Sequence record: NC_054927.1 | Direction: 5' to 3' (one strand) | From: Escherichia phage vB_EcoM_Ozark | Length of the DNA: 64,000 nt | In this document: positions 45,042-50,732 of the stretch, in pieces | How the letters are laid out: each line of letters opens with the position of its first letter | How positions within the stretch are numbered: position 1 is the first letter of the stretch | Notes under the pieces: model-generated | Told to the model about the DNA's origin: nothing | Database searches by the model: none | The model's input: the letters and a program-made list of their open reading frames with translations, nothing else | Translations under genes and position numbers: made by a program

Positions 45042-45773
45042 ATGAAATCTGGAATATATGCTATTATAAACACTAAAACCAATAAGCACTATATAGGAAG
45101 TGCAATTAATTTTGAAGAACGATGGAAACGACACTTTAAAGATTTAGATAATGGAAATCATCATTCAATAAAGCTGCAGCGTTCTTATAATAAGCATGGG
45201 AAAGATGCTTTCGTATGTAAAATCATAGAAGAACTTCCATACGAAAAATCTATCATTATTGAACGTGAAAATTATTGGATACATGAATATGACTCAAAGG
45301 AAAATGGGTATAATATAGCAGACGCATCGTTTGGGGATACCTTATCTCATCACCCAAGAAAGCAAGAAATCCTTAATAAAATTTCAAATGCAATTAAAAA
45401 TAATAATTCAAAATTATCACCAGAAGAACTTAAGCAAAAACATGGTAGACCTAAAGACATCAAAGGTAAAACTATAGAAGAACACTATGGGTTAGATCGT
45501 GCTATAGAAATAAGCAAAAAGTTCCAAGAAAGAAACGCTGCACTTAATATGAAAGGCATCAATAATCCATATTATGGACAGACACATACCAATGAAGTTA
45601 GAAAACGAATTTCTGACTCACAAAGAGGTAAAAAGAAACCCCATCTAAGAGTAAGTATAGATGGGGTAGAATATCCAACAATAGCAGAAGCTGTGCGTCA
45701 AACCGGAATAAGCAGAAAACTTATATCTAAAAGATGTGCTCTAGATTGTTGGGAATCATATTTATACTGCTAA
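45042..45773 (+). CDS. free-standing GIY-YIG homing endonuclease, I-TevI-like
   Basis: 243-aa ORF starting [21 protein letters not shown] with ERWKRHF and [13 protein letters not shown] blocks closely resembling I-TevI; opposite strand to nrdA and td. Confidence 0.8.
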
Positions 45774-46007
45774 AGTTCTACATTCGTCATATTGTTTTTC
45801 CGTTAAAACAGTAATATCGTAGTAACAGTCAGAAGAAGTTTTAACTGTGGAAATTTTATTATCAAAATACTCACGAGTCATTTTATGAGTATAGTATTTT
45901 TTACCATAAATGGTAATAGGCTGTTCTGGTCCTGGAACTTCTAACTCGCTTGGGTTAGGAAGTGTAAAAAGAACAACGCCAGAAGTATCTTTAAATCGTA
46001 AAATCAT
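45762..46007 (-). CDS. hypothetical protein translationally coupled downstream of td
   Basis: 81-aa ORF whose ATG overlaps the td stop (ATGA). Confidence 0.5.
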
Positions 46008-46864
46008 ATTGCCATTTTCCCTTTAATTGCTGGATGCGATTCATAATTTTCAAGGATAAAATCTTTCGGTTTCATGTATTCAGTTAACCAGTAAAGCTGT
46101 GTTTCGGTGTCACAATTTCCAAACTCTATAGGCCAATCAATTTTAAGTTCACATAGTTCTTTAGGCTCACGACGTAAAATTTCTTTACATTGCTCAGTAT
46201 GATTCATATAGATGTGAGTATTACCACCAGAAAATATCAAATCTCCTGGGATAAGATTACACATCTTAGCCACAATATGCGTCAAGGCAGCGTACGAGGC
46301 AATGTTGAATGGCAATCCCAAGAAAACATCTACACTTCTTTGGTACCATTGTAAATCAAGATAACCATTACGCACATTAAACTGATAGAACATATGACAG
46401 GGCGGTAATGCCATTTGATTGATTTCAGCTGGATTCCATGCTGAAACGATTTGACGTCGATCAGTTGGTAATTTTTTAATACGATCAATAGTTTCAACTA
46501 ATTGATCCACACCACCGAAATCACGCCATTGTTTACCGTATATAGGACCAAGTTCACCACTATGATATCCTAGGTCTTTAGCCTGGTTTTCATAGTTATC
46601 GTCCCAAATAGTTTTACCTTGAATAAGACTACCATGAGTGCGAAGACGTAAATCATTAACATTGGTAGAACCGGAAATAAACCATAGAAGCTCAGCAATG
46701 CATGCATTCCAGGCGAGCTTCTTAGTTGTTACTGCAGGAAAACCTTTAGTTAAATCCCAGCGTAATTTAGTACCGAACAAAGCAATTGTTCCTGTGCCTG
46801 TTCGGTCATCGGTTTCATAGCCATTTTCAAAAATGTCTTTAATTAAATCTTGGTATTGTTTCAT
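46004..46864 (-). CDS. td: thymidylate synthase, uninterrupted (no intron)
   Basis: Continuous 286-aa ORF containing the conserved TS active-site region ([12 protein letters not shown]). Confidence 0.93.
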
Positions 46865-46909
46865 TTAGTACCTTATATAAATTATAATACATTTTATGAA
46901 GCTGAATAA

Positions 46910-47269
46910 TCAATACGGTTTAGCATCAAATTTTCTCTCAATTTCAGGTGTGAAATATAATTCTTTACCGCGTTTGGAAAAGCGACCAATAATATGATAA
47001 TTATTCTCATCAAACGTGATATTACCAATATCCATAGCTTTCAACCAAATATCGATATTTCTATCCAGCTTTATGTCAAAATTCCAATACGGAGAACTAT
47101 TACCGAAAATACTACAAGCGGATTCAGTGAAACAGCTACTATAAATCTTGTCTTTAGGAACTACTAATTGATAAACACCTTTAATAAACTGAGGACCTTG
47201 CCATTTTGGCTGTTTCGCGTCTTTTTCTAATAGAATAGGGTAATAATTAAAATTCATATTTTCCGCCAT
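46910..47269 (-). CDS. hypothetical protein inserted between frd and td
   Basis: 119-aa ATG-initiated ORF occupying a 417-bp spacer between frd and td. Confidence 0.5.
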   Translation of the reverse strand: MAENMNFNYYPILLEKDAKQPKWQGPQFIKGVYQLVVPKDKIYSSCFTESACSIFGNSSPYWNFDIKLDRNIDIWLKAMDIGNITFDENNYHIIGRFSKRGKELYFTPEIERKFDAKPY

Positions 47270-47277
47270 GCGTTATT

Positions 47278-48104
<827 letters not shown>

Positions 48105-48115
48105 ATCATCTCCAA

Positions 48116-48448
48116 TTAAAAAGGATCAGGAACGTATCCGCTAGCTTTAATCATTTTAATTAACGTTAACATTCCTTTGTTAACTGCTCGTGAGATTTCA
48201 TCAAAAGCTTCAGGATTAAAAAGTTCTAACACGCCCTTCTGAACTTTTAATTTACAGCCAACAATTTCTTCATCGCCTATAGTAAATTCATTACCACCAA
48301 TTCCTCCGAAAAACTTAATTACACCAGTTAACTGTCTTCCACGAGAATATGGGTCGTGTGATAAATTAATATGAGTCACCCCGGGTACAGTTTTAAATTG
48401 GCAGCGAATGTTTACTTGGGAAATTCCAGTTACATGAATATCAGACAT
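48116..48448 (-). CDS. hypothetical protein
   Basis: 110-aa ATG-initiated ORF. Confidence 0.45.
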   Translation of the reverse strand: MSDIHVTGISQVNIRCQFKTVPGVTHINLSHDPYSRGRQLTGVIKFFGGIGGNEFTIGDEEIVGCKLKVQKGVLELFNPEAFDEISRAVNKGMLTLIKMIKASGYVPDPF

Positions 48449-48758: not shown

Positions 48759-49019
48759 TTATTTTTGAATTTTATCGAGCCACTTACCAAGCTTAATCAT
48801 TTCTTTAGTAGCCTTTTCCATACTTCTGAACTTAACCAATAGAGGATAGGTATCGACACCCATAACTAAACTGGTTACAAGACTGTGTTCACCCACAAGC
48901 CATAACGAATACGTTTGAATATCGAGCCCGTAATTTCTGTCTTTGTGGACCCGTACACCCATCACTTCAAATTTCTCACTAGCTTTTTCTACCGCATTCA
49001 GGAAATCATCTTTAGTCAT
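48759..49019 (-). CDS. hypothetical protein
   Basis: 86 aa from the ATG at 49019; the track ORF begins at a TTG. Confidence 0.4.
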   Translation of the reverse strand: MTKDDFLNAVEKASEKFEVMGVRVHKDRNYGLDIQTYSLWLVGEHSLVTSLVMGVDTYPLLVKFRSMEKATKEMIKLGKWLDKIQK

Positions 49020-49020
49020 A

Positions 49021-49401
49021 TTAGGCCTTAAAAGTTTTTCGCAAAAGTTCAATGATTTCGTCTACATTGTTTTCATCTACAATGCAGTGAATTTTTGTTA
49101 CGCCAGAAACCTTGTCTTTGACTTCATCTTTTTCAGAAGTCGGTTCTTTATACTCACGAAAACAATGAAATTCGTCTTCGCAAATTTCTAAAAGTCTATC
49201 TTTGAGGTAAAAATGCTTTCCATTTGCGCATTCAATGTGTTTTACTGCTTTATATCCGTTAGCGACGGAAACTTCTTTAACTTCAAACCATCCGCCATTA
49301 TCTCGAATGGCTTTAACTATTGATGAATTAGAACGTGGGCTATAATTAATAAATGTATCAATAAGTCTTGGAACAAGTTCATACTTTTTACCAGTATACA
49401 T
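49021..49401 (-). CDS. hypothetical protein
   Basis: 126-aa ATG-initiated ORF. Confidence 0.45.
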   Translation of the reverse strand: MYTGKKYELVPRLIDTFINYSPRSNSSIVKAIRDNGGWFEVKEVSVANGYKAVKHIECANGKHFYLKDRLLEICEDEFHCFREYKEPTSEKDEVKDKVSGVTKIHCIVDENNVDEIIELLRKTFKA

Positions 49402-49823: not shown

Positions 49824-50732
49824 TTAAAGGTCATTCAAAAGGTCATCCAGGTCCGTGTCATCAGCACTAGATGAACTGCCAGAGCTTGAGCTCATAAAAT
49901 CATCTTCAGTTTTTGTATTGAAGTCATCAACATTGAATGCATCCAAATCATCAGCAACTTTATCAGCTTTCTTAGCAGCAGTCGCTGCGGCACCGCCCAT
50001 CACAGCAGTTCCCATAACTTGACCGAATTTAGTATTCAGTTCTTCAAATGATTTGAATTTATCTTTAGAAGTCATTTCAGAAAGGTCAACCATTTGTTCG
50101 AACAGTTCTTTCTGGAAAGATTCATCATCAATGTTTGGAATCGCAGATTGATTCAGGAATTTAGATTCGTCGTAGTTACTAAATCCAGAAACTTGTTTAA
50201 CTTTCAGTACAAAGTTAGCACCTTCCCACGGACAAGTTACATCAACTGGAGTTTCACCCATTTCAACATCAACCGCAATCATTGCATTGATTTTATCCCA
50301 GATTTTCTTACCGAAACGGTATTTAAATACTTTACCTTCGTTTTCTGGAGCAGCTGGGTCTTTTACTACAAGAATGTTAGCCCAGTAAGAAGTTTTACGT
50401 TTAACAAGACTGTACTCTTTATTGTCAGTGTTGTACAGATCATTTTTACTAATATATTGACATACTGGGCAAGAATCGTAATCACCGTGGGTAGATGAAC
50501 AGTTTTCAATATACCATTTACCATTTTTCTTGAAACCGTGATTTACAAGAATTGCGAATGGTGCTTGTTCATCATTTTTAGACGGAAGAAAACGAATTAC
50601 TGCTTGACCGTTACCCGCATTGTCGAGTTTCAGTTTCCACTCGCCTTTATCTTCAGAAGAAAAACCACCTTTATTTCCAGCCAGTTTAGCCATTTGTGCA
50701 GCGAGTTCAGCAGTAGATTTACGTTTAAACAT
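49824..50732 (-). CDS. 32: single-stranded DNA-binding protein
   Basis: ORF starting [17 protein letters not shown] with Zn-binding Cys/His cluster and acidic Ser-rich C-terminus. Confidence 0.95.

Follow-up and report, generated by a model that had tools for sequence, protein, structure and literature searches.

A conserved small gene between frd and td of T4-like phages, probably lost from T4 by deletion between 9-bp direct repeats

The frd and td genes of phage T4 overlap by a stop/start ATGA, with the td start at 145112 and the frd end at 145109 of NC_000866, and no open reading frame (ORF) lies between them. In the window, the 64,000-nt stretch of Escherichia phage vB_EcoM_Ozark (NC_054927.1) analysed here, the same two genes are held apart by an ATG-initiated ORF of 119 codons. 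Is this ORF an addition to a T4-like locus, or is it T4 that has changed, and what would the product do? The first-pass annotation described the ORF, gave the T4 overlap correctly, and read the ORF as extra DNA inserted at a hotspot next to td.

The window is a segment of a Tequatrovirus (T4-like) genome with its genes on the minus strand. Read along that strand, the order is gp32, several small ORFs, frd, the ORF under study (hereinafter gene A), td, an nrdA.2-like ORF, a GIY-YIG gene on the plus strand, and nrdA:

49824-50732, minus: gp32
48759-49052, minus: 97-aa ORF between frd and gp32, without T4 counterpart
48116-48448, minus: 110-aa ORF between frd and gp32, without T4 counterpart
47859-48104, minus: 81-aa ORF between frd and gp32 (phrog_3183; RB32ORF231c in T6)
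47278..47859, minus: frd (dihydrofolate reductase), upstream neighbour (Pfam DHFR_1, E=3.6e-19)
46910..47269, minus: maximal ORF between frd and td, 119 codons (ORF listing)
46004..46864, minus: td (thymidylate synthase), downstream neighbour (Pfam Thymidylat_synt, E=7e-96)
45762-46007, minus: nrdA.2-like ORF, 81 aa (T4 NrdA.2, 87 aa)
45042-45773, plus: free-standing GIY-YIG homing endonuclease gene (Pfam GIY-YIG and NUMOD3, with a weak match to the I-TevI DNA-binding domain)

The maximal ORF is present at 46910..47269 (minus) and begins 8 nt past the frd stop, as described. The 417 bp given earlier as the distance between frd and td is right as the excess over T4, where the genes share 4 nt; the actual space is 413 nt. 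The window frd is 98% identical to that of phage JK08, and the window td is an uninterrupted, intronless gene of 286 aa. Three more small window ORFs, those of 81, 110 and 97 aa between frd and gp32, also have no T4 counterpart, and along the stretch from gp32 to nrdA at least four small ORFs of the window phage are missing from T4.

The first of two in-frame ATG codons defines the 119-codon ORF, and relatives favour the second:

46910..47257, minus: gene A, 115-codon CDS (MNFNYYPILLEKD...DAKPY), phrog_1928 member
47258..47269, minus: N-terminal extension MAEN, four codons, giving the 119-aa form; upstream ATG not conserved

The upstream ATG (47267-47269) is GTG in T6, RB33, Lutter and AugustSocin and neither ATG nor GTG in phage F2, and no purine-rich Shine-Dalgarno sequence is seen ahead of it. 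The second ATG (47257, MNFNYY...) is common to all five of these phages. Because the relatives share the second ATG, because GGCGGAAAAT lies upstream of it, and because GenBank records of relatives annotate a 348-nt version of gene A, the conserved product is the 115-aa form. The 119-codon form is a quirk of the window's own sequence, and the MAEN extension is probably not translated.

Coding statistics are those of a real gene. Specifically, gene A differs from its F2 homologue by 31 synonymous and 10 non-synonymous changes, with dS of 0.77, dN of 0.037 and dN/dS of 0.047; td has a dN/dS of about 0.10 over the same pair, and frd was left out of the comparison because an indel misaligns the sequences. 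Other Tequatrovirus pairs give dN/dS values of 0-0.09 for gene A, and one gives 0.22, that pair differing at two sites only. The GC3 of gene A (0.267) is like that of frd, td and gp32 (0.263-0.284). Of the 579 phage records matched by tblastn, all but one (578) have an intact gene at a coverage of 80% or more. Judged by these sequence comparisons, gene A is a genuine gene under purifying selection, beyond a chance ORF.

The product belongs to a small family. It matches phrog_1928 (PHROGs v4, 'unknown function') nearly end to end, with E=9.5e-36 and residues 8-115 on profile positions 2-125 of 126, and the homologue from Mineola, B of Moon and B of locus L009 match the same profile. Members of phrog_1928 in GenBank include the 'hypothetical proteins' RB32ORF229c, that of RB51, T6 AXN58269, AR1 ar1_242 and phiD1 g240; these are the same gene, and the window copy differs from them only by the extra upstream in-frame ATG. 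A profile search of 1.84 billion representative proteins recovered only about 20 clusters, all of 95-119 aa. The family alignment contains the motifs LLExDxxQKKW, HGIY, GN and IIGRFxKxGxxxxF; Q20, W23, G31, G95, K99 and G101 are invariant, no Asp, Glu, His or Cys is, and the median pI is about 8.8. Consistent with the first-pass statement that the protein has no recognisable motif, Pfam gives no match for the query at E up to 0.1, nor any common to the 23 family members when the limit is relaxed to an E of 1. Against PDB sequences, the protein alone and the family profile both returned noise only, and there is no NCBI-style family match for the gene A product.

A structural model was predicted by AlphaFold from a 23-sequence alignment, with pLDDT of 89.6 and pTM of 0.82; four sequences alone had given a poor model (pLDDT 63.8), which was set aside. 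The 23-sequence model contains eight strands and one helix. Fold matches in the PDB are all non-significant and are mostly OB folds (RPA, RMI, Stn1-Ten1, HIN, Teb1, RecO, S1), and BFVD yields nothing but uncharacterised proteins from T4-like phages, those from Aeromonas phages among them being longer. The model resembles OB-fold modules (RPA14/32, RMI1/2, Stn1-Ten1, S1, HIN and the RecO N-domain) in being small and beta-rich with one helix between strand groups, although the matches are weak. Like these modules, the family also has conserved aromatic and basic residues (W23, Y33, R96, F97, K99) and a mildly basic pI.

Homologues of gene A are found far beyond Tequatrovirus and, in every match listed, in the same place. 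By tblastn, 218 further records outside the genus fall below 60% identity (26-46%), from phages of Klebsiella, Enterobacter, Salmonella, Citrobacter, Serratia and Erwinia, and each match listed touches or overlaps an annotated frd, an annotated td or both. Homologues in this interval are known from at least seven other Tevenvirinae genera, usually as tandem paralogues A and B and sometimes with a further gene, C. Specifically, the order is frd-A-td in Mineola (Jiaodavirus), frd-A-B-td in Moon (Moonvirus) and frd-A-B-C-td in CIP9 (Kanagawavirus), with stops and starts overlapping in all three; frd-A-B-C-td recurs on a Logan metagenomic contig with a gene A that shares 63% identity with that of the window. 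We surveyed 19 loci, 14 of them from IMG/VR. A script classified 17, and in all 17 the phrog_1928 members lie between frd and td; annotations give the same placement for the other two (L004 and L013). Across loci from at least eight genera, every phrog_1928 member examined sits between frd and td, and most of the genera surveyed carry the A-B pair.

Paralogue B (Moon AIX12224, CIP9 QHS01596) belongs to the same PHROG as A (E=1e-33 to 1e-37), occupies the same interval and shares the C-terminal G-R-F-x-K-x-G-x-x-x-x-F motif. Unlike A, it has a longer N-terminal part, its identity to A being about 22-28%, and it occurs in none of the Tequatrovirus alleles examined. In Moon, A and B match each other with E=4e-10, and both match phrog_1928.

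The divergence of gene A parallels that of its neighbours. The window frd is only 44-54% identical to frd of Jiaodavirus, Kanagawavirus, Moonvirus and other genera. Between the window and L009, identities are 63% for A, 48% for frd, 82% for td and 63% for gp32; between the window and CIP9 they are 44% for A and 48% for frd, and between Mineola and Moon 41% for A and 66% for frd. Comparison of these loci indicates that the A-B-(C) cluster is probably ancestral, having been inherited vertically and differentially lost, and not inserted.

Within Tequatrovirus, the interval is polymorphic, and the T4 state is the rare one. This frd is present in about 531 Tequatrovirus records, and megablast matches the 413-bp interval at 80% identity or more in 361 phage records, including T2, T6 and RB phages. 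In 312 of the 361, gene A DNA is 95-99% identical, and the protein is found in hundreds of sequenced Tequatroviruses at 92-100% identity and at the same position. The A-only allele accounts for about two thirds of Tequatrovirus records. A contiguous T4-type frd/td junction is confined to about 19 records, among them T4 isolates, G28 and G2133, a count obtained by subtracting the 361 A-type records from the 380 that cover at least 80% of a 113-bp T4 junction probe, and not by enumeration. In about 133 records only the frd half of this probe is matched, and there the interval is filled by gene C:

L007 3060-3266 (Shigella phage JK08): gene C, in the frd-td interval
L008 (ACG-C40), L009 5670-5879 and L005 3188-3394: other copies of gene C

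Gene C is a 68-aa gene (phrog_9550) unrelated to A and is present in 147 records. It overlaps the frd stop by ATGA and abuts the td start, and the Tequatrovirus gene is 81% identical to C of the metagenomic A-B-C contig and 68% identical to that of CIP9. The C-only allele makes up about a quarter of the genus (about 137 records). Among T4 relatives as a whole, then, the frd-td interval holds zero, one, two or three small genes.

These counts reverse the polarity proposed at first. An ORF inserted into a T4-like junction is not what the genus displays, with the same DNA in 361 of about 531 records and the T4 state rare. The synteny comparison upheld the absence of the ORF from T4 itself; most relatives carry it in the same interval, and this is largely the observation, uniform presence in T4 and its relatives, that had been named as grounds for giving up the insertion, T4 being the exception.

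How might T4 have lost the gene? The answer is suggested by a 9-bp direct repeat, TAAATGAAA, that brackets the segment:

47276..47284, minus: left copy of TAAATGAAA, covering the last Lys codon and the TGA stop of frd
46859..46867, minus: right copy of TAAATGAAA, covering the td start ATG AAA

If one copy of TAAATGAAA and the intervening DNA, 417 bp in all, are taken out of the window, what remains at the junction is exactly GTATATAAATGAAACAATACC, as in T4. Over its first 45 nt, T4 td agrees at every position with the A-type sequence but not with the C-type; T4 therefore derives from an A-type ancestor. We propose that A, its paralogue B and the unrelated C would form an ancient small-gene cluster in the frd-td interval across Tevenvirinae, that the Tequatrovirus alleles (A only, C only or nothing) would be its deletion derivatives, and that the T4 state would have arisen by a 417-bp deletion between the two TAAATGAAA repeats in an A-type ancestor. 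Gene boundaries in the cluster are mostly ATGA-type stop/start overlaps, which is why such repeats exist; with ATGA junctions serving as repeats, the deletion would have recreated a translationally coupled frd/td overlap. A vertically inherited gene A lost from T4 by deletion is very probably the correct evolutionary account. For the reading as a whole, a conserved accessory gene A, deleted in T4, whose product most likely acts by binding a partner, we estimate a probability of roughly 0.8.

Two features of the junctions bear on this account. The 9-bp repeats could in principle be a target-site duplication left by an insertion, which would look alike locally; this is outweighed by the out-group synteny. 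In addition, the left junction ATGAAATAA looks like a td start ATGAAACAA that has decayed, and this likeness could reflect a past duplication or insertion event inside Tequatrovirus instead of plain retention. A two-codon mini-ORF also lies there:

47270-47284, minus: mini-ORF ATG AAA TAA, two codons, at the frd stop

One C-to-T substitution separates it from the td start, ATG AAA CAA, and it may have been left by an earlier rearrangement at the frd junction.

On its other side, gene A is joined to td by a short spacer:

46865..46913, minus: gene A-td spacer, 45 nt, with a sigma-70-like site and the td ribosome-binding site AAGG
46872-46903 (approximate), minus: AT-rich 32-nt segment with TATAAT-like hexamers, central part of the spacer

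A promoter scan places the sigma-70-like site at 46913-46884 (minus), reading TTGATT, 18 nt, TATTAT and then TATAAT, and the annotation of phage Lutter has a promoter at this position. Because promoter-like sites are no more numerous in the region than in shuffled sequences, the spacer promoter is only a candidate. The 32-nt segment is present in most A-type Tequatroviruses and absent from F2, where the gap between gene A and td is 13 nt (L010 1861-1873) and a frameshift lengthens frd into gene A.

The td gene itself varies more. The window td is a minority allele, with about 105 records at 95% identity or more and 527 at 80-90%; it shares 84% and 81% nucleotide identity with the two T4 exons, its first 45 nt being identical to T4. 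Set against the 95-99% identity of gene A in 312 of 361 records, this spread shows td to be far more polymorphic in the genus, and mosaic. The polymorphism may be related to I-TevI homing and to resistance to I-TevI. A link between loss of gene A and the td intron or I-TevI was considered and rejected, as the td intron and gene A occur together (T6, Lutter), gene A occurs without the intron (the window, RB33, AugustSocin, F2), and the intron occurs without gene A (T4, JK08).

Downstream of td, the GIY-YIG gene does behave as a recent arrival. It is antisense to all of its neighbours and stands in place of T4 nrdA.1. Within Tequatrovirus it is rare, being found in seven records at about 99% identity; it is also found in 18 Klebsiella Jiaodavirus records at about 92% nucleotide identity, where it lies just downstream of td and convergent with it. 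Between the two genera the flanking genes share only about 77% (td) and about 44% (frd) protein identity, and since these flanks are far more diverged than the GIY-YIG gene, a recent transfer between genera looks likely. The first 75 residues of the nrdA.2-like ORF equal those of T4 NrdA.2, the remainder being divergent, and its 3' end overlaps that of the convergent GIY-YIG gene by 12 nt; from this overlap, the NrdA.2 C-terminus and the whole of nrdA.1 appear to have been displaced when the endonuclease gene inserted. Thus, the statement that td is flanked on both sides by material not expected from T4 holds for the GIY-YIG side as a real recent insertion, while gene A on the other side is probably ancestral DNA that T4 has lost. 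Variability between frd and td fits differential loss, and the proposed insertion hotspot is not supported there.

What the product does can be approached from its family, predicted fold and context. Gene A would share a transcript with frd, its translation beginning at the 47257 ATG; in the window it lies 8-20 nt past the frd stop, and in most genera it is predicted to be translationally coupled to frd. The protein would be small, mildly basic, beta-rich and possibly OB-like, with no catalytic residues, and would bind a partner, either nucleic acid or a protein of the nucleotide-synthesis or replication machinery. Absent catalytic residues, fold and context together give about an even chance that it is a non-catalytic binder, and any specific partner, such as single-stranded DNA or RNA, or Frd or Td, is doubtful at best. 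T4 and the C-type phages are without gene A, so it is probably dispensable in the laboratory. Its conserved position in genomes that are collinear throughout the T4-like phages is not proof of a functional link to frd or td. A literature search on the ORF name and the frd/td interval returned nothing on gene A, its expression, interactions and phenotype included, and the T4 reviews consulted do not mention it.

An alternative is that the product is an anti-defence or host-takeover factor, in which case its position between frd and td would be historical and not functional. Many small, dispensable, early T-even proteins are such factors, and gene A is likewise small, non-enzymatic and dispensable. 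Its presence varies among close relatives that infect different strains, it is under strong purifying selection where present, and expansion into A and B paralogues is typical of accessory phage genes. However, fold searches of PDB and BFVD gave no known anti-defence protein or fold, the literature search yielded no support, and synteny this stable with divergence this slow (A is better conserved than frd in the comparison with L009) would be unusual for arms-race genes. We consider an anti-defence role unlikely, though it fares best among the alternatives.

A more specific proposal is that A and B form a new phage-specific, OB-like (hetero)dimeric adaptor that joins dihydrofolate reductase to thymidylate synthase, or tethers both to gp32 and the replisome, within the T-even dNTP-synthesising complex. 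This is a long shot. If true, the complex was defined in a phage, T4, that lacks the adaptor subunit through a natural deletion.

Turning from function to origin, the segment could be a mobile cassette, moron-like or homing-associated, that entered a T4-like frd/td overlap, duplicated a 9-bp target and brought a promoter for td. The 417-bp segment is flanked exactly by 9-bp direct repeats, its left junction ATGAAATAA is like a mutated td start, a promoter-like element lies at its 3' end, the locus has three alleles in one genus, and homing endonuclease genes are nearby (I-TevI in relatives, GIY-YIG here). Flanking direct repeats are what an insertion element would leave; deletion between pre-existing repeats explains the TAAATGAAA copies at both ends equally well, and a short repeat at the deletion endpoint is expected whenever a deletion derivative exists. 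Against a cassette, at least seven other genera have homologues between frd and td that have diverged comparably to frd or less, and there the gene overlaps frd and its downstream neighbour, with neither repeats nor promoter. The rarity of the T4 state, the 95-99% identity of gene A DNA in most A-type records and a composition like that of the neighbours also argue against it. No transposase, recombinase or nuclease domain was found in the 417-bp segment, whose sole sizeable ORF encodes the 115-aa protein without known domain. Entry as a mobile cassette is thus very unlikely, and vertical inheritance of gene A followed by deletion in T4 remains the preferred account.

Some GenBank records name the product a 'putative homing endonuclease', among them the BASEL phages AugustSocin, AndreasVesalius, FriedrichMiescher and AdolfPortmann and the Klebsiella phage ValerieMcCarty04. 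Apart from these product names, the label has in its favour that gene A is polymorphic for presence beside td, a known homing endonuclease target. We reject it, as motif, fold and distribution are all unlike those of such genes. Specifically, the 23 family members share no match to a GIY-YIG, HNH, LAGLIDADG, His-Cys box, PD-(D/E)xK or EDxHD family, nor to any other in Pfam, at E up to 1; the alignment has no invariant acidic, His or Cys residue; fold searches (PDB, BFVD) returned no nuclease; and a length of 95-119 aa leaves little room for a site-specific endonuclease that includes a DNA-binding domain. Synteny is stable across genera, and sporadic spread of near-identical copies was not found, gene A diverging in parallel with frd and gp32. 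The free-standing seg and mob genes of T4 (PMC2988022) are, like gene A, intergenic ORFs of the nucleotide-metabolism cluster that are polymorphic among T-even phages. Unlike them, gene A has no nuclease domain or catalytic residues and is ancestral and syntenic, not sporadic; seg/mob-like behaviour is shown instead by the neighbouring GIY-YIG gene (45042-45773). That gene A encodes a homing endonuclease is therefore highly improbable.

That the ORF is a non-functional remnant in a spacer, whether a chance ORF or a decaying pseudogene, could be argued from the absence of a known domain, from T4 managing without it and from the missing ribosome-binding site ahead of its first ATG, but is effectively refuted by the selection and conservation data, namely a dN/dS of about 0.05, a frame intact in all but one record, motifs kept down to 26% identity and a confident AlphaFold model.

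Gene A is thus an already known, widely annotated hypothetical gene (phrog_1928), and its presence in the window is an ordinary finding. The lesson for the genus is that T4 is not a neutral reference for its own relatives: 'extra relative to T4' means here, in the one case worked out in detail, a loss by T4 and not a gain by the others. The T4 junction further suggests a route to clean gene excision, in which recurrent ATGA stop/start junctions act as short direct repeats and deletion between them restores translational coupling. For the family, phrog_1928 is strongly constrained, has no known fold relative and sits between two textbook enzymes, which makes it a modest but tractable target.
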